NCBI GenBank assembly: GCA_934254585.1
Contig: CAKQLF010000001.1
Location: 28,093-92,092, forward strand
DNA length: 64,000 nt
Source: an uncultured Alphaproteobacteria bacterium
Lineage (GTDB): Bacteria > Pseudomonadota > Alphaproteobacteria > RF32 > CAG-239
Direction: 5' to 3'
Position 1 is the first letter of the stretch; each line of letters starts with the position of its first letter. This document shows, piece by piece, positions 34,635 through 59,111 of this stretch. Under the pieces are notes generated by a model that searched no databases, was not told the origin of the DNA, and saw nothing but the letters and a program-made list of their open reading frames with translations. The translations under genes were made by a program, and so were the position numbers.

Positions 34635-35282
34635 GTGCAGTACGGTAGAAGTATGATTGAGATGTTGGGCGTTTTGGCCATCATCGCTGTTTTGAGCGTT
34701 GGCGGTATTGCCGGATATTCTAAGGCAATGGAAAAATTCAAACTTAATAAGGCTATGGATGAATACAGCTATCTTATTTATGGGTTGCTGGAACACTTAG
34801 ATGAAATTAAATATTCCACTAAATCCAGAGACGGAAATGATACTCCTGTTGTGGAATTAGCTAATAATTTGAATTTGGTTCCTCCGACATGGACAATGAT
34901 AGCAAACAATCTTAATGTTAGTCATAAAAATTTATTTGAAGACCCATATAACAATCTTTTATCTATTTACTCAAAAAACGGAAATTTGCGTTTTGATTTT
35001 ATTTTAGGCGGTTCGCAATTTAAGGACGAAGGTTCTTGGATAACTGAAAATTTTTCAACCAAATTCTGTATGGAATTGGTAAACAATGTTGTCAAACCAT
35101 TGCATTCTTCTTTGGAATTTTTATTTTTTTACAGGTCAAAAGGAAACTCATCCACTTTTTATGGTGATAAGAATTGTTCTTCCGGACGCAAATGTTTGAG
35201 TGATATCAGTATAAAAGAAGTGTATGATAATTGTAAACGTTGCTCAAAAAAAGAAGTTTGTTCAGTAACTATAGACTTTTAA
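34635..35282 (+). CDS. type IV pilin-like protein, paralog 1 (class-III-signal-like N-terminus)
   Basis: Track ORF 34236..35282. The start is reassigned to in-frame GTG 34635 because DNA conservation with paralog 2 begins exactly there (gtgcagtNcggNagaagtatgat). N-terminus ..G-RSMIEMLGVLAIIAVLSVGGIAGYSKAMEK has Glu at +5 of the hydrophobic segment. The C-terminal Cys motif CSSGRKCL...CKRC...EVCSV is shared with paralog 3. Confidence 0.55.
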   Translation: MQYGRSMIEMLGVLAIIAVLSVGGIAGYSKAMEKFKLNKAMDEYSYLIYGLLEHLDEIKYSTKSRDGNDTPVVELANNLNLVPPTWTMIANNLNVSHKNLFEDPYNNLLSIYSKNGNLRFDFILGGSQFKDEGSWITENFSTKFCMELVNNVVKPLHSSLEFLFFYRSKGNSSTFYGDKNCSSGRKCLSDISIKEVYDNCKRCSKKEVCSVTIDF

Positions 35283-35394
35283 ATTGTATATAATAGATAT
35301 CCACCAGTAATGATGAACTTCTTCCTTAAAGGTGGGTTTCCACTTTCTGGGGTACAGTTCAAAATCGGGTGATTTCTGTAACGAATGTATTAAA

Positions 35395-35424
35395 AGCTCG
35401 TGTAACACTGAATTTACACGAGCT
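35395..35424. terminator. bidirectional hairpin terminator; also third copy of cgtgta...tacacgag palindrome family
   Basis: agctcgtgtaa-cactgaat-ttacacgagct, then ttcattttt on plus and T-rich on minus. Between convergent pilin-like gene and rho. Confidence 0.6.
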
Positions 35425-35445
35425 TTCATTTTTATCATTCAAACT

Positions 35446-36699
35446 TTAAGAATTCATATTTTGGAAAAAGTCAGCATTATTTTTAGTTTGACGAAGTTTA
35501 TCCAATAAAAATTCCATACCGTCAGTCATACCCATTTGCATAAGCACACGGCGCAAAACCCACATTTTGGTCAATGTAGCCCTATCAACCAACATTTCTT
35601 CCTTACGGGTGCCGGAACGAGTGATATCAATGGTAGGGAACAATCGTTTATCGGTTAATTTTCTATCCAAAATTATTTCCGAATTACCTGTTCCTTTAAA
35701 TTCTTCAAAAATAACTTCGTCCATACGCGAACCGGTATCAATCAATGCTGTGGCAATAATGGTTAAAGAACCGCCTTCTTCCACATTTCGAGCCGCACCT
35801 AAAAGACGCTTAGGACGTTGCAGAGCGTTGGCATCAACACCACCTGTTAAAACCTTACCAGATGATGGAACAACCGCGTTATACGCTCTTCCTAGACGAG
35901 TAATTGAATCTAAAAGAATTACAACATCTTTTTTATTTTCAACCAAACGCTTAGCTTTTTCAATACACATTTCCGCAACTTGAACGTGTCGTGTTGATGG
36001 TTCGTCAAAAGTTGAAGAAATAACTTCGCCTTTAACCGAACGTGTCATATCCGTAACTTCTTCCGGACGCTCATCAATCAACAACACCATTAAATATACT
36101 TCAGGGTGATTAGTGGAAATGGCGTGGGCTATATTTTGCAGCATCACGGTTTTACCGGTGCGCGGCGGTGCCACAATCAAACCGCGCTGCCCTTTGCCTT
36201 GCGGAGCTATCAAATCAATAACGCGTGTTGTATAATCCTTATCCTTGCATATAATGTCAAAATTAAGCTTTTCTGTCGGATATAACGGAGTTAAATTATC
36301 AAAATTCACACGCAATTTAGATTTTTCAGGGTCATCAAAATTAATGGCATTAACCTTGGTTAAGGCAAAATAGCGTTCATTATCTTTTGGCGCGCGAATT
36401 TCACCTTCCACAGTGTCCCCCGTGCGTAATCCATATTTTTTAACCTGAGCCGGAGAAACGTATATATCATCAGGACTGGCTAAATAATTTGATTTTGAAG
36501 AACGTAAAAAACCAAACCCGTCTTGCAAAACTTCTATTACTCCGTCACCGCAAATAACCGTGTCTACTTCTGACAGTTTTTTCATTATGGCGAATATTAA
36601 ATCTTGAACACGCATAGAAGATGCGTCTTCAACTCCCAAATCTTCTGCTTGAGTTAACAACTCAGTCGGAGATTTCTCCTTTAATTCTTTTAAATGCAT
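35446..36699 (-). CDS. rho: transcription termination factor Rho
   Basis: 417 aa. N-terminal RNA-binding domain, Walker A GKT and RecA-like core. Confidence 0.95.
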
Positions 36700-36872
36700 T
36701 TTTACCTTAAATTTTGTATGATTGTTAAAAATAGAATGTGAAACATTGAAATGTTTGTTGGTTTGCTTATATAAAAGATGAAGTTAAAAGTCAAATGTTT
36801 TTTATGCACATTTCTTTTCCCTTATTAATATTTTAAATTTAAATAGTTATTGTTATATATGCTTGCGAAATA

Positions 36873-36894
36873 TGTGGATAAATTTATATCCACA
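36873..36894. promoter_or_regulatory. inverted pair of DnaA boxes (tgtggataa / atatccaca)
   Basis: The 9-mer TTATCCACA is perfect on the minus strand at 36873-81. It matches 8 of 9 on the plus strand at 36886-94. Confidence 0.6.
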
Positions 36895-36927
36895 GAGTTA
36901 ATAACATTAATAAATTGTTTAACAAAG

Positions 36928-36969
36928 TTAATAAATAGTTAATTATTCAATAAGTTAAAAAATAGTTAA
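36928..36969. promoter_or_regulatory. two CtrA-box-like sites TTAA-N7-TTAA within an 18-bp direct repeat AGTTAAnAAATAGTTAAT
   Basis: ttaataaatagttaa (36928-42) and ttaaaaaatagttaa (36955-69). The region is about 80% A+T with several gttaataa repeats. Confidence 0.35.
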
Positions 36970-37097
36970 TATTTTTTTCAACATATCTTAATAAAATTTA
37001 TCTGATGTTAATAAGTTTGTATAATATTTTTACAAAAAGTTGATACTTTGTTAAAAACTAAAGTTGTAATAAAGTTATGCACATTTTGGGGTGTGTT

Positions 37098-37106
37098 TGT
37101 GGATAA
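37098..37106 (-). promoter_or_regulatory. DnaA box (perfect TTATCCACA) 30 nt upstream of coaE
   Basis: tgtggataa read directly. Confidence 0.6.
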
Positions 37107-37136
37107 GCATTATAACTTTTTGATATAAGGCAAAAG

Positions 37137-37724
37137 ATGAAAATAATTGCGATTACAGGTTCAATTGGGTGTGGTAAAACATTCTTAACCAATATCATAA
37201 GAAATCTTGGATTTGTGGTTTATAATATGGATAAATGGGTTAAATATTTATATTATAAGCCGGCGTTTCTTAATGTGGTAAAACAAAATTTTCCTGAAGT
37301 TTTTGAGGCAGACGGCAGTTTTAATAAACGAAAATTAAGAAATTTAGTGTTTAATGACAGTAAACGTTTAAAAAAGTTAGAAGCTTTGATTTATCCGTTT
37401 TTAAAACAAAAATTATTGAATATTATTCGTAAAAATTCACAAAGCGATAAAATTTTCTTTTTGGAAGCGGCTTTGCTGTTTGAATGTAATTGGAATGTTT
37501 ATTGTCAAACGGTTATTTTGGCTGATGTCGCTAAAAATGTTCAAAAAGAAAGAGTTATGGCAAGAGATAATATAAGTGCCGAAGATTTTGAAAAAATTAT
37601 TGCCTTACAAATGGATAATGAACAAAAAAAACAATATGCCGATGTTGTGATTAATACGGATAAAACTGAAAACTTATTAAAAGTCGAACTTATAAAAATA
37701 ATAGAAGAGTTAACAAATGCGTGA
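37137..37724 (+). CDS. coaE: dephospho-CoA kinase
   Basis: P-loop ITGSIGCGKT. 195 aa. In a coaE-dnaQ pair. Confidence 0.85.
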   Translation: MKIIAITGSIGCGKTFLTNIIRNLGFVVYNMDKWVKYLYYKPAFLNVVKQNFPEVFEADGSFNKRKLRNLVFNDSKRLKKLEALIYPFLKQKLLNIIRKNSQSDKIFFLEAALLFECNWNVYCQTVILADVAKNVQKERVMARDNISAEDFEKIIALQMDNEQKKQYADVVINTDKTENLLKVELIKIIEELTNA

Positions 37725-38436
37725 AATATGTTTTGATACGGAAACAACAGGTTTAGACCCTGATACCGGTGATAGATTGGTGGAAATAGGCGCGGTCGAG
37801 CTTATTAATCATTTGCCAACAGGAAAGATTTATCACGAATATATAAATCCGGAAAGAGATGTTCCCGAAGAAGTTGTAAAAGTGCACGGTTTGGACAATG
37901 AATTTTTAAAAGATAAACCGGTTTTCAGAGATGTGGCACAATCTTGGGTTGATTTTATAGGCGATGACGGAATTTTGGTGGCTCATAATGCCTCATTCGA
38001 CTTGAAATTTATTAATTTTGAACTGAAAAAATGCGGTTTTAAAACTTATGATTGGGACAGAGTTGTTGATACGTTGGCAATTGCCAGAAATGAATTTCCG
38101 GGGGCTCGTAATAATTTGGACGCCTTGTGCCGTCGTTTTAATGTAGATAATTCAGCGCGTACATATCACGGAGCTTTGTTAGATGCGCAATTGCTTGCCG
38201 AAGTATATTTGCAGTTATTGGGAGGCGATGAGCCAAGTATAAATTTTGTTAAATCATCGGCAGAAAATTCTCAAAAACACGGCGAAAATATCAGTTTTAC
38301 GGCGCAAAACGTGCAAAAAAGAGTGTTTGCTTTATCAGAAGAAGAACAGCAGGCTCACTTAGATTTTCTTGAAAAAAAAATTAAGAACGCTTTATGGTTA
38401 AAAAATACTGAAAGTGATATAAATAATGATGCTTAA
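37717..38436 (+). CDS. dnaQ: DNA polymerase III epsilon subunit (3'-5' exonuclease)
   Basis: Exo I motif FDTETTGLD, Exo II HNASFD and Exo III YHGALLDAQLLAEVY. Confidence 0.85.
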   Translation: MREICFDTETTGLDPDTGDRLVEIGAVELINHLPTGKIYHEYINPERDVPEEVVKVHGLDNEFLKDKPVFRDVAQSWVDFIGDDGILVAHNASFDLKFINFELKKCGFKTYDWDRVVDTLAIARNEFPGARNNLDALCRRFNVDNSARTYHGALLDAQLLAEVYLQLLGGDEPSINFVKSSAENSQKHGENISFTAQNVQKRVFALSEEEQQAHLDFLEKKIKNALWLKNTESDINNDA

Positions 38437-39697
38437 CCAACTCAATAATGTTTATAAAACTTACATAAATAAAAGAATGCTTATATTATTGGCCTTGGGT
38501 TTTACCAGCGGTTTTCCTTTTTTATTAGTGTTCGGAACTTTGAGTTTTTGGTTAAAAGATTTGGATATTTCCTATACTTTAATAGGTACTTTTTCTTTGG
38601 TTAAAATTCCGTATTCGTTAAAATGGGCTTGGTCACCCATAATTGATAATGTGAAAATACCTTTTTTATATAAGTTAGGACGCCGCCGTTCTTGGGCCGT
38701 TTTTATTCAAATTTTATTGTTTTGCGCTTTGATTGCTATGGCCTTAACTAAGCCGGAAATACACACTTTATATATGGCGATGTTTGCATTGCTTGCCAGT
38801 TTTTTGTCAGCTTCTCAAGATATTGTTTTGGACGCATTCAGAGTTGAAAGCTTTGAAAATGAACCCGAAAAACAAGCATCTGGTGTGGCTATTTATGTTT
38901 TGGGGTATAGATTGGGATTGATTTTTTCAGGTGCCGGCGCAATTTATTTAGCCTCGGTAATTGATTGGTCTGAAGTGTATATGATTATGGCTTGCGGTTT
39001 GCTTGTCGGATTAACCGCGATTTTATTGGCAAAAGAACCGCAAAAATATATTTATAAAAAATATAAATTTAAGTTTAAAGACAGTGTTCTGTTTTTTAAA
39101 AATTCAATAATAAACCCTTTTAAGGATTTTATTAAACATCAGCATTGGTATTGGATATTATTTTTTATTTTTACATATAGATTAAGCAACGCTTATTTTG
39201 CACCTATGAGTTTTCCTTTTTATGTGGATTTAGGTTTTACAAAAGCGGAAATTGCTTCAGTTATAAAAGTTTATGGTATGGTCGCGGCTATTTTAGGCGG
39301 GTTAACCGGTGGTTTGATTATTATGAAAATAGGTTTGAAAAAAAGCTTGATGTTTTTTGGTTTGGCTCAATGTTTGACAACATTTTTGTTTGCGTTGCAA
39401 GCAGAATACGGGCATAATATGCCGCTGTTTATGATTATAATAACTTTAGAAAATTTTTCTTCAGGTTTGGCCACTACGGCTCTGGTTGCTTATATATCAT
39501 CGCTATGCAACAAACTATATACGGCAACACAATATGCATTGCTGTCATCGGTAATAAGCTTATCAAGAGATATTTTTGCTTCAACAAGCGGTATGCTTGC
39601 GCAAATGGTTTCGTGGCAGGTGTTTTTTATTATTTGCGGATTTTTAAGTTTACCAAGCTTGTTTGTTGTGTGGTTTTGTTTTAAAACCGATAAATAA
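38426..39697 (+). CDS. ampG: MFS transporter, AmpG-like (muropeptide permease)
   Basis: About 12 TM segments. 423 aa. N-terminal FPFLLVFGTLSFWLKD resembles AmpG. Confidence 0.6.
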   Translation: MMLNQLNNVYKTYINKRMLILLALGFTSGFPFLLVFGTLSFWLKDLDISYTLIGTFSLVKIPYSLKWAWSPIIDNVKIPFLYKLGRRRSWAVFIQILLFCALIAMALTKPEIHTLYMAMFALLASFLSASQDIVLDAFRVESFENEPEKQASGVAIYVLGYRLGLIFSGAGAIYLASVIDWSEVYMIMACGLLVGLTAILLAKEPQKYIYKKYKFKFKDSVLFFKNSIINPFKDFIKHQHWYWILFFIFTYRLSNAYFAPMSFPFYVDLGFTKAEIASVIKVYGMVAAILGGLTGGLIIMKIGLKKSLMFFGLAQCLTTFLFALQAEYGHNMPLFMIIITLENFSSGLATTALVAYISSLCNKLYTATQYALLSSVISLSRDIFASTSGMLAQMVSWQVFFIICGFLSLPSLFVVWFCFKTDK

Positions 39698-39752
39698 GTG
39701 ATTGTCAAAAATGAAAAAATAGACTATACTCTATATTGTTTATTGGAAAGAT

Positions 39753-40883
39753 TTGAAAATGACTGAAAATAATAAAAATAAGTTTGAAACCGGAAAATAT
39801 AATAGTGAAAGTGCTGATAATATTTTAGAACGCAGCGAATCTTGGCAGGCAGTGGCAAAACAATTTGACAAGTATTCCGAAAAATCCGGTGGAAAAGGAC
39901 AAATAAGCAACGATATAATATTTTCAGGTAAAATGCTGCAAGGCGGAAGTTTTAACGGCGAAAATTTTGAAAATGCCGATTTTAGCGGCAGTAATATGCA
40001 AGAATGCAGTCTAAAAAACGCTAATCTGCAAAATGTTAATTTTACGGGAGCGGATTTGAGCGGCGCGGATTTAAGCGGCGCAAATTTAGACGGAGCAATT
40101 TTTATAGGTGCTCAGCTTATAGGTACAAATTTTACCGGTGCACATATGCACGGCGTAAAGTTTCAAAATGCCGATTTACAAGACGCGATATTGCTTGATG
40201 CCGATTTGGATAATCTTTCAATTGAAGAATTGCAGGAATTGGTTGAGTATTTGGCTAAATATTATCCGCATAAGCTTAATTTAACCAGACTTAATTTGAC
40301 TTTGCTTGATTTGAAACGTATTGATTTAACTCAAGTAAATTTACGCGGAGTTGATTTTACGGGATGTGATTTTACCGGTGTAAATATTTATGAACTTGAT
40401 TTAAGTGAATGTGTTATTTCTCCGGCGCAAATTGAACAGGCAATCGGACATATTCCAACAGCTTTGGAACTGAAGAAAATTTTGGCACCGAAAAAGAAAA
40501 GTATAAAATCAAAACAGATGGGAATCGATTTTGAAGATTTTTTTACCGGTGGAAGAGGTGGTTTTGATTTAGATACAACAAAAATGAGTCTTGATGTTTC
40601 CGGTTTGTATAAAAAAGGAAAAAATTTTGTTAAAAGTTTTACCCGTGATGCTTCCGATAATAAAATTATAGAAAATTTTGATAAAGAAAAATCTGAACAT
40701 AAAACGGATAAAAAAGAAAGTAATATTGATGAATTAAGAAAAACAATTGAAGAACATAAACGTGAAGTGTTAGAACGCCGACAAGAAGAACTTAATAGAG
40801 AATCTAAAGAAAAAATGCGTGAACAAATTCGTGAAAAAATAAATGAAAATAAAGCAATGTTAAGAACTTCTCGAGAAAGATAA
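39753..40883 (+). CDS. pentapeptide-repeat protein with charged C-terminal tail
   Basis: Tandem A(D/N)LSG pentapeptides (ADFSGSNMQECSLKNANLQNVNFTGADLSGADLSGANLDGA...). C-terminal K/E-rich region. Confidence 0.8.
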   Translation: MKMTENNKNKFETGKYNSESADNILERSESWQAVAKQFDKYSEKSGGKGQISNDIIFSGKMLQGGSFNGENFENADFSGSNMQECSLKNANLQNVNFTGADLSGADLSGANLDGAIFIGAQLIGTNFTGAHMHGVKFQNADLQDAILLDADLDNLSIEELQELVEYLAKYYPHKLNLTRLNLTLLDLKRIDLTQVNLRGVDFTGCDFTGVNIYELDLSECVISPAQIEQAIGHIPTALELKKILAPKKKSIKSKQMGIDFEDFFTGGRGGFDLDTTKMSLDVSGLYKKGKNFVKSFTRDASDNKIIENFDKEKSEHKTDKKESNIDELRKTIEEHKREVLERRQEELNRESKEKMREQIREKINENKAMLRTSRER

Positions 40884-42202
40884 TGGAAGACACTTTATTT
40901 TCAAATAAAATAAAAAGACCTTTAGCAGACAGGTTACGGCCGACAAAACTTGAAGATGTTGTTGGGCAAAAACAAGTTGTTGGTGATAATGCTCCGTTGG
41001 GGCGTATGTTAAAATCAGGTAAAATCAGTTCTTTTATTTTGTGGGGACCTCCAGGATGCGGAAAAACCACAATAGCGCGCTTGATTGCCGAATACACAAA
41101 CTTATATTTTGAACAAATTTCCGCTGTTTTTTCAGGGGTTGCCGATTTAAAGCGAGTTTTTCAATATGCACAGGAACGTAGGGCTAATCAAGGAAAAGGC
41201 ACTCTGTTGTTTGTTGACGAAATTCATCGTTTTAATAAATCTCAGCAAGATGGTTTTTTACCTTATGTCGAAGATGGTACGGTTATTTTAGTTGGTGCAA
41301 CCACCGAAAATCCGTCATTTGAATTAAATTCGGCTTTACTTTCGCGTTGTCAGGTTTTTGTTTTGAATCGTTTAACTGCTGATGATTTTGAAATTCTTTT
41401 GGAGCGTGCCGAAAAAGAAGAAGGTAAAAAGTTACCGATTGATGACGAAGCCAGAGATTTTATTAAGGAAATTGCCGACGGAGATGGTCGCTATATTTTG
41501 AATATTGCGGAAAATATTTGGTCATATGCGCAAAATGGAGAAATTTTTAATAAAGAACAAATTTTGAATATTATTCGTTCGCGAGCTCCTATATATGATA
41601 AAGGTCGCGACGGACATTATAATTTGATTTCCGCCGTACATAAATCTTTGCGCGGTTCAGATGTTGATGCGGCTTTATATTGGGTGGCGAGAATGCTTGT
41701 AGCCGGTGAAGACCCGCGCTATATTTTAAGACGATTATTAAGATTTTCGGTTGAGGATGTTTCTTTAGCTGATCCAAACGCCGTCAGCCAAGCGATTTCG
41801 TGTAGTGAAACTTATGAACGCTTGGGTTCACCGGAAGGAGAACTAGCTATTATGCAATTAACAGCCTATTTGGCAACAGCTCCTAAATCTGCAAGTGTAT
41901 ATAAAGCGATGCATAAAGCATTTGACGCGGCGCGTCAGACAGGTTCATTGATGCCGCCAAAACATATTTTAAATGCACCGACTAAGCTGATGAAAAATTT
42001 GGGATATAAAGATGGATATATCTACGACCAAGATTTGGAAGACGGATTTTCCGGTCAAAATTATTTTCCGGATGGTATGAGCCGCGCTAAATTTTATAAT
42101 CCGGTTGAGCGCGGTTTTGAACGGGAAATTAAAAAGCGTATAGAATATTTTGATAAGCTGCGTAAAGAAAAACAAGCCAAAATGAAAGAAAAAAATGATT
42201 GA
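40883..42202 (+). CDS. rarA: replication-associated recombination protein A (AAA+ ATPase)
   Basis: Walker A GPPGCGKTT and Walker B LFVDEIHRFNK. 439 aa. MgsA C-terminal domain. Confidence 0.9.
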   Translation: MEDTLFSNKIKRPLADRLRPTKLEDVVGQKQVVGDNAPLGRMLKSGKISSFILWGPPGCGKTTIARLIAEYTNLYFEQISAVFSGVADLKRVFQYAQERRANQGKGTLLFVDEIHRFNKSQQDGFLPYVEDGTVILVGATTENPSFELNSALLSRCQVFVLNRLTADDFEILLERAEKEEGKKLPIDDEARDFIKEIADGDGRYILNIAENIWSYAQNGEIFNKEQILNIIRSRAPIYDKGRDGHYNLISAVHKSLRGSDVDAALYWVARMLVAGEDPRYILRRLLRFSVEDVSLADPNAVSQAISCSETYERLGSPEGELAIMQLTAYLATAPKSASVYKAMHKAFDAARQTGSLMPPKHILNAPTKLMKNLGYKDGYIYDQDLEDGFSGQNYFPDGMSRAKFYNPVERGFEREIKKRIEYFDKLRKEKQAKMKEKND

Positions 42203-42250
42203 TTATCTTTATGATAATAGGAAAAATTAACATAAAAAAGGTGGAAGATA

Positions 42251-48437: not shown

Positions 48438-48585
48438 GTGAACAACTAACAACTAATACTTTGATTTTTTTCCGCTGTATAAAGGCGGATTTTTTTTGTT
48501 TTTAACGATTAACTTAAAATCTGTTTTAAAATAGTAAAAAATAAAACATATTTAGATAAAACAATTAATTAAAACGCGGTTTAAA

Positions 48586-48627
48586 GTCCGTTTTAAACCA
48601 CCGTTTAAAACGGACTCTCAAAAATGG
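48586..48627. repeat. left inverted repeat (contains perfect 12-bp palindrome gtccgttttaaa/tttaaaacggac)
   Basis: Read directly. Its reverse complement matches 48726-48766 at about 75% identity (shared core ttaaaccaccgtt...ggactct). Confidence 0.75.
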
Positions 48628-48679
48628 AAAATCAAAAAAATCACCAAACCCGAAAAAATGTTGAAAATATAAAAAGTTA

Positions 48680-48708
48680 TTGCAATATTGGCACCTTTTT
48701 CCTATACT
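48680..48708 (+). promoter_or_regulatory. sigma70-like promoter TTGCAA-17-TATACT inside the IR-flanked segment, facing pilin-like paralog 2
   Basis: The hexamers and 17-bp spacer were read directly. Confidence 0.4.
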
Positions 48709-48725
48709 CAAAAAAACAGCAAAAA

Positions 48726-48766
48726 AGAGTCCAAAAATAACGGTGGTTTAAATTGGACTTTAAAAG
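48726..48766. repeat. right inverted repeat (inverse copy of 48586-48627)
   Basis: agagtccaaaaataacggtggtttaaattggactttaaaag. Confidence 0.7.
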
Positions 48767-48997
48767 AAGAAAAAATAAAGGAGAATCAAAGTGTTAGAAA
48801 ATGGCAAAATGGGGCTTTTAAGACGGGTTTTTGAGGTGATTTTTGGGCACAATGTCATTAATCGGCATTTTTTCAAGGTTATTAGTGAGATTTTGGGTAC
48901 CATTCGCGGGCTCCGACCTGCGAATCTGGATTGCCGGATTACGTCTGGCAATGACAGTAAGGTGGAGTGCGTCACGTTCGGCAATGACTATAGAGTT

Positions 48998-49636
48998 GTG
49001 CAGTCCGGAAGAAGTATGATAGAAATGCTCGGCGTTTTGGCTATAATTGCGGTTCTTTCCGTTGGCGGAATTGCCGGATATTCCAAGGCCTTAATGAAAT
49101 GGAAATCAAATGTTCAAAAAAATATGTTGGCAGAATTGTTAACTAATATGATAAAAATTAGACCTAATCTCGATAAAAAATCTACATCATTTGATAACAT
49201 AACCTATGTTTTTGAGGCTATGGGAGCATTACCGGAAGGAATAACTTATAAAAATAATTATATGTATGATAAAGAAGATAATTTGATTTGGATTGATTAT
49301 GGTTTATCGTCGTGGACTAATGAAGATGGTTCCATTGGCACGATGTTTGCTTATGTTTTACGTTTTAATTATAAAATAGGTACTGGTAATCTAACGGTTC
49401 CGGCTAAGGATTTTTGCTTGAATTTGCTTGAGGCTGCTAAAACTATTGCGGAAGAGGTTGTTTGTGTAAAAACAAATTATAGTGATTCTTCCAGTTGGAA
49501 TGGTTCAGGTCAAAATGTAATGTATACAAAAAGGTCTTTAGAAACGGCAACAATGGCAGATATGCAACAGAAATGCAATATGGTAATTAAAGAAGAGGGC
49601 GGAGTTCGTTTTTCATTAATGCTAAATCCTTATTAA
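48998..49636 (+). CDS. type IV pilin-like protein, paralog 2
   Basis: Track ORF 48791..49636. Start reassigned to in-frame GTG 48998 (MQSG-RSMIEMLGVLAIIAVLSVGGIAGYSKALMK). The C-terminal domain is diverged (3 Cys) and not alignable by eye with paralogs 1 and 3. Confidence 0.5.
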   Translation: MQSGRSMIEMLGVLAIIAVLSVGGIAGYSKALMKWKSNVQKNMLAELLTNMIKIRPNLDKKSTSFDNITYVFEAMGALPEGITYKNNYMYDKEDNLIWIDYGLSSWTNEDGSIGTMFAYVLRFNYKIGTGNLTVPAKDFCLNLLEAAKTIAEEVVCVKTNYSDSSSWNGSGQNVMYTKRSLETATMADMQQKCNMVIKEEGGVRFSLMLNPY

Positions 49637-49691
49637 AAAAACTCCCCGCTAAATTGATAACGGGGAGTTTTTTGTAGTCAATCTCTAAAGA

Positions 49692-52370: not shown

Positions 52371-52610
52371 GGTTATTTAAGCTCCTATTAGCTATTTTGT
52401 TAAAACGAAGTTACAGCCCGCAAGCGAACCATAACTAAAATTAAAAAAACTTCAATTTGCCTTGAATGTATAACACAAAATGTCAGACTTCAAGCAAAAT
52501 ATCACATTTTTCGGGAAAAAAATATGGACATAATTGCTTATTTTTACGCAAAAAATAAAAAGGTTGTCAAAATACAGACAACCTTTTTCAAATACACTTT
52601 TTCAAAGGGC

Positions 52611-53123
52611 TTATTTAGCCAAAATATCCAACAATTTTTTGTTTGCTTCTTCCATTGAACAATTGCTGTAAACCGAAACTTCGCTTGCCAAGCGGTTTAC
52701 CGCCTGTTCGTAAATTTGACGTTCACTGTAAGATTGTTCGGCAATATTTTCATTGCGGTACAAATCGCGTATAACTTCGGCAATAGCCACCGGATTTCCG
52801 GAATTGATTTTGTTTTCATATTCCTGAGCGCGGCGCGACCACATAATTTTACGAATTTTAGCTTTGCCTTTTAAGGTTGTAAAAGCTTCATTCATCGTTT
52901 TGTCGTCAGAAATCTTACGCAAACCAACGTGCTGAATTTTGGAAGTCGGAATACGCAAAGTCATTTTGTCTTTGTCAAAATTTACCACCAGAAGCTCAAG
53001 TTCTGAACCGGCAATATTTTGTTTGGTTACGTCAGCAACTTTTCCAACTCCGTGGGTTGGATAAACTACATATTCGCCGGCGTTGAAAGTTAGTGATGGT
53101 AATTTTTTAATACTCATATTCAC
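52611..53123 (-). CDS. cdnL: CarD/CdnL-family transcriptional regulator
   Basis: N-terminal RNAP-interacting domain FNAGEYVVYPTHGVGKV. 170 aa. Confidence 0.8.
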   Translation of the reverse strand: MNMSIKKLPSLTFNAGEYVVYPTHGVGKVADVTKQNIAGSELELLVVNFDKDKMTLRIPTSKIQHVGLRKISDDKTMNEAFTTLKGKAKIRKIMWSRRAQEYENKINSGNPVAIAEVIRDLYRNENIAEQSYSERQIYEQAVNRLASEVSVYSNCSMEEANKKLLDILAK

Positions 53124-53219
53124 TCCAGAAAAATAAAATTTATTACGAAAACATTAATGAATATAGCACATTTTTAGAGCTAAATCCAGAGCAAAATGTG
53201 AAAAAAGATAAAATTTTTA

Positions 53220-53696
53220 CTATTTTTTTATTTTTGGAAACAGATTTGTCTGGCGGAGAGCTTCGGTTAAAGCCATTGCGGCTGAAACCGCCATATTTAT
53301 GGAGCGAGCTTCCGGCGACATCGGAATCAAAAGCTGTGCGTCGGCCAGTTGGTGAATTTCTTCAGGTACGCCCGCACTCTCTCGTCCCATAAGAATGATG
53401 TCGTTAGGTTTAAAGGAAAAATCTAAAAACGAATCCGCGCCATGAGTTGTCATTAAAACCAATCGCCCATATTCTTCGGGGTGTTGGCGGCGATATTCCA
53501 TAAAGTCCGTCCAACTGTTGTGGCGACGGCAATTAACAAAATCCAAATAGTCCATACCGGCACGGCGCATAGCTTTTTCGTTAAATATGAAACCGCAAGG
53601 TTCAATGATATCCAATTCAAGATTCAAACAGGCACCCAAACGCAAAAGCGTACCTGTGTTTTGCGGTATATCCGGTTGATATAAAGCTAAGCGCAT
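53220..53696 (-). CDS. trmL: tRNA (cytidine/uridine-2'-O)-methyltransferase TrmL (SpoU family)
   Basis: SPOUT motifs (LIPMSPEARSINMAVSAAMAL). 158 aa. Confidence 0.75.
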   Translation of the reverse strand: MRLALYQPDIPQNTGTLLRLGACLNLELDIIEPCGFIFNEKAMRRAGMDYLDFVNCRRHNSWTDFMEYRRQHPEEYGRLVLMTTHGADSFLDFSFKPNDIILMGRESAGVPEEIHQLADAQLLIPMSPEARSINMAVSAAMALTEALRQTNLFPKIKK

Positions 53697-53725
53697 AGCG
53701 GTATTTCCTTTTTTTGTTTTACGAA

Positions 53726-54208
53726 TTATGCCGATTTTTTCGCTTCTTCGGCTTCTTTGGCTTTTTTAGCATTGTACAAAGCCACAAAATCTACCGGACT
53801 TAACAACATCGGCGGTAAACCTGCTGCAGACAAGCTGTTGGCAATAATGCTGCGAACAAACGGGAACAGCAAACGAGGCATTTCAATATACAAAACAGGT
53901 TCCAAATGTTCTTCCGGAACATTTACGGAAACTACGGAGGCGTAAGTCAATTCAACAATAAACAGAGTCTTGCCGTTTACATCAGCGTTCATTTTTGCGT
54001 TGAGAGTAACGTTATAGTTTCCATCGTCCATTTTTTTGCTGTTCATACCCATATCAACGTTTACATTGGGATTTTGTGTTAATTCCTTAAAAATTTCCGG
54101 TGCCAAAGGAACTTCCAAAGACATATCCTTTATATATTGGCTGTGAATTACAATTCCGCTTGGTTGTTGATTGTTGGTTTGATTATTTTCCATTTTTTTC
54201 TCCTTCAA
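53726..54208 (-). CDS. secB: protein-export chaperone SecB
   Basis: 160 aa. Core YIEMPRLLFPFVRSIIANSLSAAGLPPMLLSPVDF matches SecB. Confidence 0.8.
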   Translation of the reverse strand: MKEKKMENNQTNNQQPSGIVIHSQYIKDMSLEVPLAPEIFKELTQNPNVNVDMGMNSKKMDDGNYNVTLNAKMNADVNGKTLFIVELTYASVVSVNVPEEHLEPVLYIEMPRLLFPFVRSIIANSLSAAGLPPMLLSPVDFVALYNAKKAKEAEEAKKSA

Positions 54209-54321
54209 ATTTCAGTTTAATAAGAAATAATACGAAAAAAGCTAATCGTCAAACATTTATATTGATAAAATTTTTATTTGTTTTATATTATTAGCGTATA
54301 TATAGTGAGGTAGAAAAAAAG

Positions 54322-54945
54322 ATGGTTGATATAATTTTTTTGTTAGTGTTGGTTGCCGCAGTTGCTGTACGTCTTTATAGTGTTTTTGGAAAAAACAGCG
54401 AAGAGAAAAATGTTCGCGTTATCTTGAGACCTGTACAAAAAAGTTCTGACGAGCAGGTTGTTGATAACATAATGGAAATTGTTCGGCCAGAGCAGGTTAA
54501 AACCAAAACGGAAGAAAAAAGTTCTGTTTCCGACGAATTTAATAAAGAAATGTTCTTACAAGGCGCGCGTCGTGTGTTTGAGCTTGTTTTGAACGCTTTT
54601 AGCCGTGGCGACTTGCTGCCGGTAAAAGATTTGGTGAGTAAAAAAGTTTTTGAAGCTATCAATGGCGTGATTACCGAGCGGAAAGAAAATAATATAACCT
54701 CGGAAGTTGATTTTATTTGCTTTGATAAAAGCGAAGTTAAAGATGTAAAAATGCTGAAAAACAGTATTAAAGTGGTGGTAGAGTTTGTAAGCGAACAAGT
54801 TAATTTGTTGCGCAACGCTAAAGGCGAGGTGGTTGAAGGTGATGAAAATTTCGTGCAAAAAATCACTGATGTTTGGACTTTTGAAAGAATGTTAAATGCA
54901 AAAAACAATAATTGGGTGCTGGTTTCCACTAAAAAAACAGCTTAG
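54322..54945 (+). CDS. Tim44-like domain protein
   Basis: N-terminal TM helix plus Tim44-like C-terminal domain. Conserved position between secB and mltA in alphaproteobacteria. Confidence 0.65.
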   Translation: MVDIIFLLVLVAAVAVRLYSVFGKNSEEKNVRVILRPVQKSSDEQVVDNIMEIVRPEQVKTKTEEKSSVSDEFNKEMFLQGARRVFELVLNAFSRGDLLPVKDLVSKKVFEAINGVITERKENNITSEVDFICFDKSEVKDVKMLKNSIKVVVEFVSEQVNLLRNAKGEVVEGDENFVQKITDVWTFERMLNAKNNNWVLVSTKKTA

Positions 54946-56104
54946 TTTTATCTTTTTAACCACATTTTTATTGCTTCTGAACGGTTGTTTTCAAGAAAAA
55001 AAAGAAGTTCCGACAACCGAAAAAGGCAAGGTTGTGTTGAAAAAGGTCGGATATTCACAACTTTCAGGTTGGAAAAACGATGATTTTGCTGAGATTATTC
55101 CGGTTTTTGCTAAAAACTGTCAGGCTGTTTTGAAAAATAAAAATACCTATTTATATACTTCAAAAATAAAATTAATAACTGCTGATTATCAGCGAGTGTG
55201 CAAAAAATTTAATGCGGCCGCCATAAAAAACGGTTCGCAGATGAAAAAATTTATTGAAAATGAATTTGTGCCATATTCGGTGAGTAATAACGGAGTGGAA
55301 AACGGCAAGTTTACTTCTTATTATGAGGCAGTAATTTATGCGTCTTGGGAAAAAACGGCAAAATATAAATTTCCGATTTATGGCAGACCTCAAGATTTAA
55401 TAGAGATAAATTTGAAAGATTTTGACAGTTCGTTGCCTAATACTCGCTTAGTGGGGAGGGTAGATGGTAAGAAGTTTGTTCCCTATTATAATCGCCGCGA
55501 AATTGAACAAAACGGGGTGGAGGCTCCGGTTTTGATGTGGGGTGATGATTTGGTCGATATTCATTTTATGCAAATTCAGGGTTCGGCGATAGCTATTATG
55601 AATGACGGTACGGAACAGCGAATCGGTTTTGCCGACAGTAACGGCCGAAAATTTAAAGGTATTGGTTCTATTTTGCTGCAAAAAGGGTTGATTAAACAAG
55701 GCGAAGCCTCAATGACCAAAATCAGAGAATGGTTACGGAAAAATCCGCAAAAAGCCGCCGAGATAATGGCCGAAAACGAACGTTTTATTTTTCAGAGGGC
55801 TGTGGATGCCGATGGTCCGATTGGAGCGATGGGACTTTCTTTGACGGCCGGCCGCAGTATGGCCGTTGACAATCAATTCATTCCTTTGGGAGCTATGCTG
55901 TGGCTTGATACGGTTAATCCCGATAATGATAAAATAGAAAAAGTGGTGTTTGCTCAAGATATTGGCAGTGCTATAAAAGGTGTTGTGCGCGGCGACTATT
56001 TTTGGGGGCACGGCGAAGAAGCGTTGGCTGAAGCCGGACGAATGAATTCCGTCGGTAAATATTATTTGCTTGCGCCTAAATATTCGACACCAAAGGTTAA
56101 CTGA
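54896..56104 (+). CDS. mltA: membrane-bound lytic murein transglycosylase A (lipoprotein)
   Basis: Lipobox LLLNGC. MltA core including GDDLVDIHFMQIQGSA and the 3D domain. The track start overlaps the Tim44-like gene by 50 nt, so the true start may be downstream. Confidence 0.75.
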   Translation: MQKTIIGCWFPLKKQLSFIFLTTFLLLLNGCFQEKKEVPTTEKGKVVLKKVGYSQLSGWKNDDFAEIIPVFAKNCQAVLKNKNTYLYTSKIKLITADYQRVCKKFNAAAIKNGSQMKKFIENEFVPYSVSNNGVENGKFTSYYEAVIYASWEKTAKYKFPIYGRPQDLIEINLKDFDSSLPNTRLVGRVDGKKFVPYYNRREIEQNGVEAPVLMWGDDLVDIHFMQIQGSAIAIMNDGTEQRIGFADSNGRKFKGIGSILLQKGLIKQGEASMTKIREWLRKNPQKAAEIMAENERFIFQRAVDADGPIGAMGLSLTAGRSMAVDNQFIPLGAMLWLDTVNPDNDKIEKVVFAQDIGSAIKGVVRGDYFWGHGEEALAEAGRMNSVGKYYLLAPKYSTPKVN

Positions 56105-56643
56105 TGACAGAACAAAACGACGATGAAAAATTTTGGCTTGAAGTGGTTGAAGGTATTAAACCAATGCAATCCACTCAGGTTGTTTCACGTGAAAAAAAAT
56201 TAAAACCGGTGCAAAAAGAAAAAATTTATTATGCTGTAAAGCAGGAGTTTTCTACTTATTCCAAATTTTTAGATGATTTTGAAAACGGTGGAATAGACAA
56301 GTCTACTTTGCGTAAATTTAAGCGTGAAGAGTTTAGAGTGGAAGCTGTTTTGGATTTGCACGGGCTGACGGAAGACGAGGCTTTTGCCAAGGTTGACAGT
56401 TTTATTCCGCAAAGTTATGCTTTAGGCCGTCGCTGTGTGATGATTATAACCGGAAAAGGAATCAGAGTTCATCCGAATGACGATATTTTTACTTCTAAAG
56501 GCGTCTTACGCAAGCAAGTGCCGCAATGGCTGAATATGGCACGTTTGCGGGCTATGATATTGATTTATAAACACGCTTCGGAAAAAATGGGAGGTGAGGG
56601 AGCTCTCTATATTTTGTTACGGAGAAATAAAGATATTCAATAG
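56104..56643 (+). CDS. Smr-domain protein
   Basis: C-terminal Smr motif LDLHGLTEDEA...ITGKG. Conserved mltA-smr adjacency. Confidence 0.7.
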   Translation: MTEQNDDEKFWLEVVEGIKPMQSTQVVSREKKLKPVQKEKIYYAVKQEFSTYSKFLDDFENGGIDKSTLRKFKREEFRVEAVLDLHGLTEDEAFAKVDSFIPQSYALGRRCVMIITGKGIRVHPNDDIFTSKGVLRKQVPQWLNMARLRAMILIYKHASEKMGGEGALYILLRRNKDIQ

Positions 56644-57731
56644 GAGCGGCGTAAGGATTTTTCTAAATGTTTTTGCGCAATGGCGTATTCGGTATTATAA
56701 TAGGTTTCGTTTGTTTTTAGCTGTAGTTTATCGGCAAGTTGTTTTTGAAATCGTTTTTCCAAATTGTAAGTCACAACTTCCATTGGAATGGATAAATAGG
56801 TTTCGGAATGATCTTGTAAATAATTTAAGCGGTGGCTGAATAGTTCTTCCATTTCCGGAAAATCAGGATAATCGGCGTTTGTTTGTGCAATGTGCGTGGT
56901 TTCGTGAAAGGCCAGAGTTAAACATTCTATACCGGTGTATTTGGGAAAAAAATCTTTATTCAAGTAAATATTCTGATAATCGGAAAAGGCGTCGGTTTGC
57001 ACCCATTGTGAAATTTGTTGGTCATTATTTACTTGTTTTTGGCTTAAATAGTAAACTTTTGGCGGATTAATTCCATTTACCTCGGCAGTTATTCGGCTTG
57101 TTTCATTAAGAATATAACGCCTGTCTTTTTCACGTAGCGAACTGAAATTTTCTAATTTTTCTTTTATATTCGGGATAGACGCTATTTTAGCAACGATTTG
57201 CTGTAATTTTTGATATTCAGCTTCCATAAAACGTGACGGAATTTTAAGTTGAAGCACCGCCTTAAATTTTTCGCTGTTTTCTTCAATAAAATTATATTGA
57301 TTTTGGCGTATTTTTTCAGTCGGAAACAATGTTTGAGCATAAGAAAAAATAATGTCTAATTTTTTGCGATTACTTAAATTTGCTAAAAGTTTGGGCGAAG
57401 ATTTGCGTAAGATTCTTTTGTTTCTTCGTCTGTTTTCAGGCATAAAATATATACCGTGTTCATAGCTGTCATAAATCATATCACCAAAATATTGAAAAGC
57501 CGTATCATTTAAGTTATCAAGGGTAAAACCATTTATTTTAATCCAAATATCTTTTTTATTTTGCCCGCAGGTGCACTTATAATTTTTGAATATTTCTTTG
57601 ATTTTGTTGATATGGTTAGGACGAAATACCTTAAATTTTACAGACTCAGAAGCGTAATCGTCGAGGTTGGGGACGATATTCAGGATATCTGTGTGGCGTT
57701 CAAGCCATTTATAGTCAGCTTCTTTTATCAT
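56637..57731 (-). CDS. hypothetical protein with HExxH motif (second member of HE[LT]THI family in window)
   Basis: 364 aa, no signal peptide. Motif LAFHETTHIAQ with downstream PEMEE acidic cluster, in the same arrangement as the protein at 11154. Confidence 0.5.
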   Translation of the reverse strand: MIKEADYKWLERHTDILNIVPNLDDYASESVKFKVFRPNHINKIKEIFKNYKCTCGQNKKDIWIKINGFTLDNLNDTAFQYFGDMIYDSYEHGIYFMPENRRRNKRILRKSSPKLLANLSNRKKLDIIFSYAQTLFPTEKIRQNQYNFIEENSEKFKAVLQLKIPSRFMEAEYQKLQQIVAKIASIPNIKEKLENFSSLREKDRRYILNETSRITAEVNGINPPKVYYLSQKQVNNDQQISQWVQTDAFSDYQNIYLNKDFFPKYTGIECLTLAFHETTHIAQTNADYPDFPEMEELFSHRLNYLQDHSETYLSIPMEVVTYNLEKRFQKQLADKLQLKTNETYYNTEYAIAQKHLEKSLRRSY

Positions 57732-57848
57732 AATATCAGTCTAACACTTTTTATGCTAAAAATAAACAAACTTTTTAAATTTTTAATTTTAACAACTTTT
57801 TAACCGGAATTTTTGCATAATATTCGTCAGATATTCAGGAGGACTAAG

Positions 57849-58124
57849 ATGAAAAAATTATTTATGTTGGGTATAGTGGCAATGGTTGCGGCTTGTTCTT
57901 CCTCGCCAAAAGAAACTTATCCGTATGGTTTAAGCGAATCTGAATGGAATCAGCTTTCGATTAAAGATAAAACGAGAATTCGTCGGGATTTTTACTTTTA
58001 TGAAAAAGGACAGGTAAATTTTGTAAATCCGGATATGGATATTGAGGGTAAAAAAGAGCAGCCAAACATCTATCAAAAGAAAATTCAGGGAAAAGTTGAA
58101 ACAAAAAGCTTAGAAAACGAATAG
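57849..58124 (+). CDS. small lipoprotein
   Basis: Track ORF starts at 57813. The better start is ATG 57849 with SD aggagg 7 nt upstream. Lipobox MVAACSS. Confidence 0.6.
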   Translation: MKKLFMLGIVAMVAACSSSPKETYPYGLSESEWNQLSIKDKTRIRRDFYFYEKGQVNFVNPDMDIEGKKEQPNIYQKKIQGKVETKSLENE

Positions 58125-58218
58125 AATGATTTAGCATAACTTTGCTGTTTATAAGAACTCCGGTTAATATTTTGGTTATTAACCGCGAGTTTTTTTGTAA
58201 GCTTACAATAAAATTATC

Positions 58219-58247
58219 TTGCTAATTTTCAGCAAATTAGTTAGAAT
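58219..58247 (+). promoter_or_regulatory. sigma70-like promoter TTGCTA-17-TAGAAT with overlapping 7-bp inverted repeat (ctaattt/aaattag)
   Basis: Read directly. Drives the structured region upstream of pilin-like paralog 3. Confidence 0.45.
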
Positions 58248-58254
58248 GTTTCTT

Positions 58255-58467
58255 GAGTTGGTTGTAACCGGCTTAGGGCGTCAGAAACCCTTTATTCAGA
58301 TATACAGTCGTTAAGCATAAGCGACTTTAAATATGTATGCCGACTTCTGCTCTTTTGGACGGATGTCGGTTTTATAAGGCTATAAGCACGAAAATGCCGA
58401 GCCGTTTTTTGTATATCTGATACGGTTTCTGAACATCCGCCCGCCAACAGGTGGGTTTTGTTTTTTT
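58255..58467 (+). ncRNA. candidate structured RNA (sRNA or cis-regulatory leader/attenuator) ending in an intrinsic terminator
   Basis: A long imperfect inverted repeat, tcagaaaccctttattcagatatac (58281-305) paired with gtatatctgatacggtttctga (58411-432), encloses about 105 nt with an internal stem ccgac...gtcgg. The terminator cccgcc-aaca-ggtggg plus U-run lies at 58440-67. Confidence 0.35.
58440..58467 (+). terminator. rho-independent terminator/attenuator 24 nt upstream of pilin-like paralog 3
   Basis: Stem cccgcc/ggtggg (one G-U pair) followed by ttttgttttttt. Confidence 0.7.
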
Positions 58468-58490
58468 ATAATTATACAGGTGTTTAGAAT

Positions 58491-59111
58491 ATGGGATATT
58501 TTTACAATCAAACAGGTCGTTCAATGATAGAAATGTTAGGCGTTTTGGCTATTATCGCCGTTTTATCCGTGGGAGGTATTGCCGGATATTCTAAGGCAAT
58601 GGAAATGTATAAAGAAGATAAAGTTATTGAAGAATATAGCTATATGCTGACAGGTTTTATTGAACATTTGGATAATTTAAAGCGAAATAAATATGAAAGA
58701 CAAACAGGTATGGTTGATTTTGCTCTATCTGCCAATATTGTACCATCTGTATGGACCAGACTAAGCAGTGATTATATAAATGATAGCTTTGGAAATAAAT
58801 TAAGAATATATATGGGAACAAGTGGTATTTTGGTTATTGATTTTTGGATGGGTGGAAAAACTAAAAAATTTGATACAAAATTTTGCCGTAAATTTTTAAA
58901 TAAAGTTGCTTTTCCCTTACATCAGACATTAAAGCAAATTGATGTGCATCGTAATGAAAATGGAAACTTAAATGGTCTAATATGGAAAGGAGATAATTTT
59001 TGCAGTGCGGGGCAAAAATGTCTTAGAGATATTACGTTGACGGAAATAGATGCGGCTTGCAAAACTTGTGTGGAAGATAGAGAAGTTTGTGCAGTTATTT
59101 TCTGGTTATAG
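58491..59111 (+). CDS. type IV pilin-like protein, paralog 3
   Basis: Sequence MGYFYNQTG-RSMIEMLGVLAIIAVLSVGGIAGYSKAMEMYK has a 9-aa leader ending in Gly, then the conserved block. The C-terminal CSAGQKCL...CKTC...EVCAV is homologous to paralog 1. Confidence 0.6.
   Translation: MGYFYNQTGRSMIEMLGVLAIIAVLSVGGIAGYSKAMEMYKEDKVIEEYSYMLTGFIEHLDNLKRNKYERQTGMVDFALSANIVPSVWTRLSSDYINDSFGNKLRIYMGTSGILVIDFWMGGKTKKFDTKFCRKFLNKVAFPLHQTLKQIDVHRNENGNLNGLIWKGDNFCSAGQKCLRDITLTEIDAACKTCVEDREVCAVIFWL

Follow-up and report, generated by a model that had tools for sequence, protein, structure and literature searches.

A dispersed family of type IVb-pilin-like proteins with long modular leaders and putative phase-variation switches in an uncultured gut alphaproteobacterium

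A stretch of 64,000 nucleotides from an uncultured alphaproteobacterium (assembly GCA_934254585.1, contig CAKQLF010000001.1, positions 28,093 to 92,092 of the forward strand), referred to here as the window, contains three open reading frames (ORFs) on the + strand, par1, par2 and par3, whose products share the same pilin-like N-terminal block. Each of them carries the motif GRSMIEMLGVLAIIAVLSVGGIAGYSKA; its Gly codon lies at 34644 in par1, 49007 in par2 and 58515 in par3, and the 28-residue block, Gly followed by RSMIEMLGVLAIIAVLSVGGIAGYSKA, is identical in all three proteins. A six-frame motif scan found no fourth copy in the window. For par1, the Gly(-1) codon, the block (34644-34730) and a mature protein with a six-Cys head extend to the stop codon at 34644-35282 (+ strand), as delimited by motif scan and alignment. 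The corresponding part of par2, with a two-Cys head, lies at 49007-49636 (+ strand). The third gene, par3, occupies 58491-59111 (+ strand), where an ATG and an 8-aa leader (MGYFYNQTG) precede the block (58515-58601) and another six-Cys-head protein; no switch was found at this gene. The rest of the window, which has a G+C content of 36.9%, consists of housekeeping genes (DnaE, ParAB, MnmEG, Rho, PPDK, SecB, AlaRS, a BigA-like giant protein and others).

An initial annotation, made from the letters of the window, had recognised the shared N-terminus and described it as pilin-like, with Gly(-1), Glu(+5) and an atypical Arg(+1). Both observations hold: the three residues are present in all three window genes, and among 237 distinct copies of the family Gly(-1), Ser(+2), Met(+3), Glu(+5) and Met(+6) are each 100% conserved, while Arg(+1) is found in 97%. 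Glu(+5) is followed by about 20 hydrophobic residues (MLGVLAIIxVLSVGGIAGY) and, downstream of these, by an AxA-like S-K-A that is 95-97% conserved in the same copies, so that the consensus of the signal and the alpha1N helix reads G-RSMIEMLGVLAIIxVLSVGGIAGYSKAM. The DNA of the block, first estimated to be 85-90% identical between copies, is in fact 77-82% identical over 87 nt, and all DNA differences within the 28 residues of par1, par2 and par3 are synonymous. The synonymous codons of the block are all in use, including all four Gly codons and both the Ser and both the Arg families, and a random pair of copies shows 14.4 synonymous versus 2.0 non-synonymous codon differences over 29 codons. 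Because the synonymous codons are saturated while the residues are near-invariant, the block, with the G-R-S that precedes its Met, is judged from this codon pattern to be translated and under extreme selection at the protein level.

Outside the block, the paralogs are only 17-40% identical. The C-terminal Cys motif that had been noticed in par1 and par3 is common to both, and six Cys do not vary across 46 aligned homologs. The C-terminal domain of par2 had been called unrelated; however, with the N-terminal 44 residues removed, profile-profile comparison identifies the par2 head as a remote homolog of the par1/par3 head (hhalign probability 97.9%, E 5.7e-13, 147 columns). AlphaFold (AF2, with the family alignment) models par3 with a predicted local distance difference test score (pLDDT) of 83, a predicted template modelling score (pTM) of 0.76 and a 53-residue N-terminal helix (residues 12-64), and par2 with a pLDDT of 88, a pTM of 0.80 and a 49-residue N-terminal helix (residues 6-54). 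Both models place an N-terminal alpha1 helix on an alpha/beta head, i.e., a lollipop fold, and are confident except in the membrane helix. This predicted fold appears closest to that of solved type IVb (T4b) pilins, and the subunit size is 197-211 aa. A Foldseek search against the PDB gave no significant match, and a search of the family profile against PDB sequences was set aside, as it returned only chance matches to the gp41 coiled coil, with a fimbrial protein at E 0.44.

The N-terminus of the window proteins aligns residue by residue with canonical type IV (T4) pilins. Their consistent matches among hidden Markov models (HMMs) are limited to the N_methyl, TIGR02532, PpdD and PRK10506 models, all of them sub-threshold; thus, the prepilin models proposed by the initial annotation as a check were indeed the best consistent matches, yet none was passed. 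A firmer connection is provided by a 263-aa paralog in relatives (L186, 12057-12848, and L187), which carries the identical block (…SGRSMIEMLGVLAIIGVLSVGGIAGYSKAM…) and, in L186, scores above the Pfam gathering thresholds (GA) of two T4b pilin families, Bundlin (41.6 bits, GA 22.3) and PilS (30.1 bits, GA 22). This L186 gene lies two genes downstream of a T2SSE-family ATPase, with an FxLYD-domain membrane protein between them. The window proteins are thus best described, from their sequences, as type IVb-pilin-like, one paralog being a member by Pfam criteria.

The same N-terminus could instead be read as a Sec-type signal or anchor, cut by signal peptidase I between SKA and M or left uncleaved, in which case the proteins would be periplasmic or membrane-anchored without forming a filament and their likeness to pilins would be convergent or vestigial. 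The sub-threshold matches to pilin N-terminal models, the conserved S-K-A, the atypical Arg(+1) and the lack of a prepilin peptidase, platform or secretin in 2.09 Mb of lineage DNA (a sample, perhaps a fifth of the best-covered metagenome-assembled genome (MAG), rather than whole genomes) would all fit such a protein. However, leaders of 30-250 residues before the hydrophobic segment are unfit for a Sec n-region, and Sec signals are not near-identical across paralogs that share 17-40% elsewhere. The Gly directly before the helix and the Glu at position 5, both 100% conserved, are the signature of prepilin peptidase recognition and assembly, the predicted helix runs about 50 residues into a head matching T4b pilins, and one paralog that carries this block scores above both the Bundlin and the PilS threshold. 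The Sec-type explanation is accordingly considered improbable.

The family is far larger than the three members first described, since at least 46 distinct copies occur in one related MAG. Counted within the 80 GTDB loci that were kept, three MAGs hold at least 46, at least 32 and at least 26 copies. A search with par3 returned 6,974 proteins at E <= 1e-3, none with a Pfam domain, and the few named ones are entries of the type 'hypothetical protein [Alphaproteobacteria bacterium]' from gut MAGs. When the profile was run against 1.84 billion representatives, it matched 5,522 clusters (50% identity) at E <= 1e-3, of which 3,697 remain at E <= 1e-10 and 480 at E <= 1e-30. Homologs beyond the window thus amount to thousands of clusters, and the initial annotation's description of a dispersed multigene family of probable surface proteins is supported. 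Among the GTDB species representatives there are at least 576 family matches, and those listed all belong to uncultured Alphaproteobacteria MAGs from human and animal gut, apart from the names of a few mislabelled bins. In this respect, several public bins rich in family copies (L007, L013, L083 and others) are labelled Bacteroidaceae, Eubacteriales or Lachnospiraceae, which probably reflects mislabelling or contamination of the source records. A literature search found no description of the family, and the motif occurs in no paper of the searchable literature. In reduced-genome gut Alphaproteobacteria (Rs-D84/Enterousia), type IV pilus genes have been reported only for another lineage, UBA9783, and many hypothetical membrane proteins are mentioned for Rs-D84 (PMC12306168).

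The region upstream of the block differs strongly between copies. In 74 of 178 copies (~40%), a Shine–Dalgarno (SD) sequence and an ATG are followed by a leader of only 5-8 residues that ends at the Gly, e.g., MKQNQFG or MYKNFEKG, and par3 is of this kind. The other copies have long in-frame open upstream regions (median 63 codons), and these long leaders are mosaics of recurrent GC-rich palindromic modules, with a G+C content of 43-46% versus 33% in the mature parts. In par1, the pilin frame is open for 201 codons back from the Gly codon, up to an SD-ATG at 34037, and this leader (34041-34643, + strand; 43% G+C versus 33% in the mature part), delimited from the sequence and strain comparison, contains palindromic modules at 34215-34260 (reverse), 34310-34350, 34475-34510 and 34588-34620. 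Such hairpin-forming modules, e.g., caagattctcgggacaagcccgagaatgac and cgtgtac-N7-gtacacg, are also found in the leaders of most homologs, where they stand at set distances from the Gly codon while the frame varies by gene. In par2, a strong SD (AAGGAG, 48778-48783) is located 7 nt before a GTG at 48791, which opens a 72-residue leader (MLENGKMGLLRRVFEV...; 48778-49006, + strand); the resulting 281-aa product is called identically on 23 contigs, and the par2-type start module recurs in P0085 and P0069.

Several observations show that the reading frame of these extensions is maintained. A start module consisting of GAGGAGGAATAAG and an ATG (MFKGIEFFKGKSRG…, 'MFKGIEFF') shares the frame of the Gly codon, 84-558 nt away, in 20 of 20 copies, and the frame rule described below for a second module is obeyed by 82 of 83 loci. 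Orthologous leaders differ across strains by multiples of three: without its repeat tract, the par1 leader measures 393, 591 or 756 nt, and variants of the par2 leader carry in-frame additions of 15 and 24 nt. Because the frame is conserved (20/20 copies and 82/83 loci) and the insertions and deletions are multiples of three, the upstream extensions are interpreted as translated leaders of 30 to about 250 residues. The idea that they are non-coding repeats resembling repetitive extragenic palindromes or miniature inverted-repeat transposable elements had been raised because different genes read one palindromic element in two frames, and it was rejected as a full account once the conservation of the frame had been measured. 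An Rfam search of the window returned only three tRNAs and no known RNA element in the long upstream regions. The initial annotation had dismissed the long ORFs and placed GTG starts at 34635 and 48998; however, given the SD-backed GTG of par2 at 48791 and the SD-backed ATG of par1 at 34037, these starts appear very unlikely.

The start module of par1 (34025-34039, + strand), which is conserved upstream of homologs, comprises the SD GAGGAAAGAAAG and the ATG at 34037-34039 and encodes MKNKLSKG, after which a (TC)8 repeat follows within the leader coding region (34060-34075, + strand). With eight units, the frame of the ATG ends after 16 codons at a TAA (34085-34087), i.e., the gene is OFF. The same arrangement, GAGGAAAGAAAG-ATGAAAAATAAGC...GG(TC)n, is found before 38 pilin-like genes from GTDB loci and 45 from metagenome contigs, the latter being independent loci retrieved by a 23-nt pattern. 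If d is the distance from the ATG to the Gly codon (80-947 nt) and n the number of TC units, then (d-2n) mod 3 = 0, with the pilin frame open from the tract on, in 82 of the 83 loci (38/38 GTDB, 44/45 metagenome), so that only values of n divisible by three put a gene in frame. The commonest tract length is n = 7 (30 and 45 loci in two sets), followed by n = 8 (7 and 16) and n = 6 (5), with a few tracts short or interrupted. The n = 6 alleles in L096, L126, L149 and L152 are complete in-frame ORFs of 268-343 aa, as is that of protein P0095. Repeat length also varies at the par1 locus among three samples of one species: the window and L086 have eight units (n = 8), and L085 has seven (n = 7). 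In silico addition of one unit gives a 415-aa preprotein, while removal of two gives 413 aa. Tracts of at least five TC units are nearly confined to the upstream regions of family genes (~45 in 1.27 Mb), and about 38% of the copies carry the (TC)n module. Programmed frameshifting at the tract was rejected, since alleles with n = 7 and n = 8 need opposite shifts. From the strong excess of OFF alleles (79/83), it seems that only a minority of cells have any given gene ON.

Such an excess might also be expected if most copies were silent donor cassettes that are brought into one expression locus by gene conversion, as with pilS and pilE of Neisseria, the block and the modules serving as recombination tracts and OFF meaning silent; the initial annotation had likewise pointed to the layout of pilin antigenic-variation systems. 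Besides the 79 of 83 out-of-frame (TC)n alleles, the mosaics of upstream modules and the whole-module differences between strains imply recombination among copies, and contigs often break within leaders. However, each copy is a complete gene with its own SD, ATG and intact ORF, and the frame outside the tract is kept in 82 of 83 loci, which would be purposeless in a silent cassette. In addition, n = 6 alleles are in frame at several loci, par2 has a putative promoter switch of its own (described below), and the block, being synonymously saturated and conserved as protein with a DNA identity of only 77-82%, is a poor recombination substrate. Silent cassettes of this kind are therefore regarded as a very improbable explanation, and the layout proposed at first is not supported for these full-length copies.

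The family loci systematically fragment assemblies and cause wrong start calls. Contigs often end at them, many GTDB copies sit at contig ends, and seven of ten rho-bearing contigs (among L087-L094) end within the par1 leader at about 34230-34500 of the window. As a further observation at this locus, a 1,637-aa protein with BigA-type domains (29046-33959; Pfam match on an ortholog) ends 78 nt before the par1 start module, and this giant putative adhesin is thus the same-strand neighbour of the presumably phase-variable pilin-like par1.

A different arrangement is found upstream of par2, where two 39-nt inverted repeats are located at 48580-48618 and 48726-48764. Each repeat is compound, with two 12-bp half-sites around a 7-bp core (CCACCGT/ACGGTGG). 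The left recombination site, recognised by its inverted half-sites, reads GTCCGTTTTAAA-CCACCGT-TTAAAACGGAC (48580-48618, annotated on the + strand, like the right site at 48726-48764), and the two sites delimit an invertible segment of 135 bp (48605-48739). Both orientations of this segment exist in assemblies of the same species: it is forward in the window and five other assemblies and inverted in five assemblies and one partial contig. In the inverted assemblies, the flanks are identical and the arms are exact hybrids, as expected from a crossover in the core. Four short contigs (among L190-L196) break at or near the right arm, with ends at about 48700-48740. The segment contains a putative sigma-70-like promoter, TTGCAA-N17-TATACT (48680-48708, + strand), which points toward par2 in the window and may drive this gene, the orientation in the window then being ON.

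A second class of inverted repeats, GTGTAAAAAAAACGACCGTT and AACGGTCGTTTTTTTTACAC separated by 134 nt and with a core like that of the par2 switch, was observed in relatives in 34 instances (e.g., L017:9535-9704, L009:9480-9650 and L040:9528-9697), just upstream of the 'MFKGIEFF' module. In 14 instances, the repeats lie between divergent pilin-like genes. The spacer is oriented alike relative to the gene in 26 of 26 cases, with a TTGCAA-N17-TAGACT sequence facing away from the gene, and no flipped copy was found among the 34 instances. From its sequence, this class resembles a family of invertons.

Nine contigs agree over the 420-600 nt upstream of par3. An 11-nt perfect inverted repeat in this region (58296-58306 and 58410-58420; 103-nt spacer) was considered as an inverton and rejected, as no variant occurs in the nine contigs. 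A terminator-like hairpin, cccgcc-aaca-ggtggg with a T run (58437-58470), is located 20 nt before the par3 start region. Beyond the gene, some strains (L002:7023-8334, L205, L207) have a DUF6088/AbiEii toxin-antitoxin-like pair between par3 and tRNA-Thr(CGT), which is not present in the window (~59112-59180). Elsewhere in the window, a copy of the initial 36 nt of tRNA-Thr(GGT) stands exactly 195 nt upstream of the gene (20337-20372 and 20532-20567), possibly left behind by an integration or rearrangement at this tRNA.

In agreement with the initial annotation, searches with Pfam and with phmmer (E. coli GspD/E/F/O) found no pilus machinery in the window. Of the two components that it had named as worth seeking in the genome, a pilus-type ATPase is present in relatives, whereas a prepilin peptidase did not appear in the 2.09 Mb sampled. 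The ATPase, a T2SSE-family protein of 317 aa, keeps 80-94% identity across many MAG clusters and, in the PDB, matches PilT, GspE, DotB and PilB best. In L070, it is encoded about 800 bp from a par2-type gene. A cluster recurring in relatives (L186:10001-12848, L187 and L070:16818-19239) combines a divergent FadL-like porin, this PilT/GspE-superfamily ATPase, the FxLYD-domain membrane protein and a pilin with the family N-terminus, which is the Bundlin/PilS-positive paralog in L186 and par2-type in L070; this cluster may be the core locus of the system.

The nature of this ATPase bears on a further possibility, namely a type IV filament for secretion or DNA uptake that stays inside the envelope, with the proteins as its pseudopilin-like components or its substrates and the paralogs as alternative minor or tip subunits, comparable to the variants of the R64 PilV shufflon. 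No secretin was found in the window or in the 2.09 Mb sampled, the sole ATPase is short (317 aa) and PilT/ComGA/GspE-like, and the Bundlin-like paralog at a conserved site beside it could be the single major pilin, all of which would suit such a filament. Against this, two independent ON/OFF mechanisms together with extreme diversification of the heads would point to selection from outside and hence to exposure, and a size of 197-211 aa with this fold is as compatible with major T4b pilins as with minor ones. A filament confined to the envelope is considered very unlikely.

Taken together, it appears fairly probable that the three genes encode prepilin-like subunits of the T4b kind that belong to an expanded family whose expression is stochastic gene by gene. 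Each protein would consist of a disposable leader, an invariant class III-type signal with the alpha1N helix, and a variable alpha/beta head stabilised by disulfides. A prepilin-type peptidase would cleave after the Gly, the alpha1N helices would form the hydrophobic core of a filament, and the variable head would be its exposed part. The signature, the fold and the apparent phase variation all suggest this cleavage, the assembly into a filament, the surface exposure and a corresponding biological role. Under the proposed control, par1 would be translated only when the (TC)n after the ATG at 34037 has a multiple of three units, so that the (TC)8 of the window would be OFF and could be turned ON by one slipped-strand event (n = 9) or by two (n = 6). 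The par2 gene would be transcribed from the promoter on the 135-bp segment, which would be inverted by a site-specific recombinase and is presumably ON in the window, while par3 would have an ordinary start with no detectable switch. As a result, each cell in a population would show few of dozens of alternative pilin heads, and such varied heads would suit adhesion to varying partners or escape from antibodies or phages.

Several observations weigh against this interpretation. The window proteins score 13.8-15.5 bits with N_methyl (PF07963) against a cut-off of 21.2, and 10.9-15.8 bits with TIGR02532 against a cut-off of 16.3, and the Bundlin (PF05307) and PilS (PF08805) head models give no match to par1, par2 or par3 at E up to 1. 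The window proteins, with Arg at +1 and leaders of 8 aa in par3, 72 aa in par2 and ~203 aa in par1, do not as a set match the canonical short basic leader followed by a hydrophobic (Phe/Met/Leu), N-methylated +1 residue, and to our knowledge there is no precedent for prepilin peptidase substrates with Arg(+1) or with leaders of 70-250 residues. Neither the window nor the 2.09 Mb of fetched lineage DNA, searched by regular expression and by phmmer with E. coli seeds, yielded an A24 peptidase, a GspF/PilC-type platform or a secretin. The ATPase is a lone gene that falls below every NCBIfam equivalog cut-off, and its context in two clades shows no operon around it. As for the switches, 79 of the 83 (TC)n alleles are OFF with n limited to 6-8, a range narrower than free slippage would give. 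The differences in repeat number and orientation are seen between assemblies, with no switching seen within one population. The par2 promoter is a consensus match, and no recombinase is encoded in the window or near par2, a search with FimB/FimE having given three hits, none of them linked.

A more far-reaching reading is that these genes specify a type IV filament of a new class, built from dozens of T4b-like subunits with Arg(+1) and long leaders, controlled by two stacked gates and assembled by unfamiliar machinery, which we regard as rather unlikely, although less so than the alternatives set out above. The subunit preproteins of such a filament may carry leaders of up to about 250 residues made of mobile palindromic modules and may serve as alternative major subunits. 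Their control may combine the (TC)n frame switch in the leader with Xer-like invertons, some of which may serve divergent gene pairs. The machinery may not be recognisable as PilD, PilC or secretin and may instead be minimal, with the orphan PilT-like ATPase and its FxLYD-domain partner.

About 5,500 clusters (50% identity), with at least 46 genes in a genome estimated at ~1.7 Mb, have neither a Pfam domain nor a name, and annotation pipelines miscall the start codons of the family. An uncultured gut lineage would devote several per cent of its genes to one switchable surface repertoire, which would bear on attachment to partners or on evasion of immunoglobulin A or phages. The limits of the class III signal would be stretched by Arg(+1) and by leaders of hundreds of residues, and the family would offer a clean natural case of one gene family under two phase-variation mechanisms. 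Both the (TC)n frame rule and the signature of the hybrid arms can be read directly in metagenomes, and the family loci explain assembly break points of these genomes.

The closest known relatives in architecture are the T4b pilins, i.e., TcpA of Vibrio cholerae, CofA and LngA of enterotoxigenic E. coli, BfpA (bundlin), and PilS of Salmonella Typhi and R64. They share with the family a mature size of about 200 aa, a +1 residue other than Phe, Gly(-1) and Glu(+5), leaders longer than those of T4a pilins and a long alpha1 helix, and one family paralog passes both Bundlin and PilS. The N-terminus of the family, VLAIIGVLSVGGIAGY, resembles that of TcpA, which we take to be VLGIMGVVSAGVVTLA. In contrast to T4b pilins, the family has Arg(+1) and leaders of up to about 250 residues composed of repeated modules, and it comprises dozens of dispersed paralogs rather than one pilin in an operon of 10-14 genes. 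The window proteins also match no Pfam pilin head and have no linked peptidase, platform or secretin. Large sets of paralogs are known from the DUF1559 proteins of Planctomycetes and the PilE-like genes of Elusimicrobium minutum, which number tens to hundreds per genome and have a near-invariant class III N-terminus with varied C-termini. Unlike the present family, those proteins have the canonical GFTLIEL and pass N_methyl, and we know of no control of individual genes by simple sequence repeats or invertons, and of no long modular leaders, in either of them.

The two switches have separate counterparts. In Helicobacter pylori, CT repeats in the part of the outer-membrane protein genes oipA, sabA and hopZ that encodes the signal sequence, and in Neisseria the CTCTT leader repeats of opa, set the reading frame by their number. 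As in the (TC)n genes, the pyrimidine repeat lies a few codons after the ATG in a cleaved leader, and the multigene family is mostly OFF. However, the cargo here is pilin-like with a class III signal, as much as 600 nt (200 codons) can separate the repeat from the mature part downstream of it, and n spans an unusually narrow range of 6-8. The par2 segment resembles fimS of E. coli (FimB/FimE) and the capsule and fimbrial invertons of Bacteroides in being a short promoter segment between inverted repeats upstream of a gene for a surface structure, with both orientations in natural populations, but differs from them in its compound arms (two 12-bp half-sites and a 7-bp core) and in the lack of an adjacent recombinase. 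With Neisseria pilE/pilS and the R64 PilV shufflon, the family shares a constant N-terminal pilin part joined to many alternative C-terminal parts; in contrast to both, it lacks both silent cassettes truncated at the 5' end and clusters of invertible C-terminal segments, each alternative being a complete gene that would be switched separately. The control as such thus resembles, by analogy, known contingency loci and invertons, and what appears to be new, as far as the sequences indicate, is the combination of both switches on a pilin family, together with the size of that family, its modular leaders and its unannotated status.

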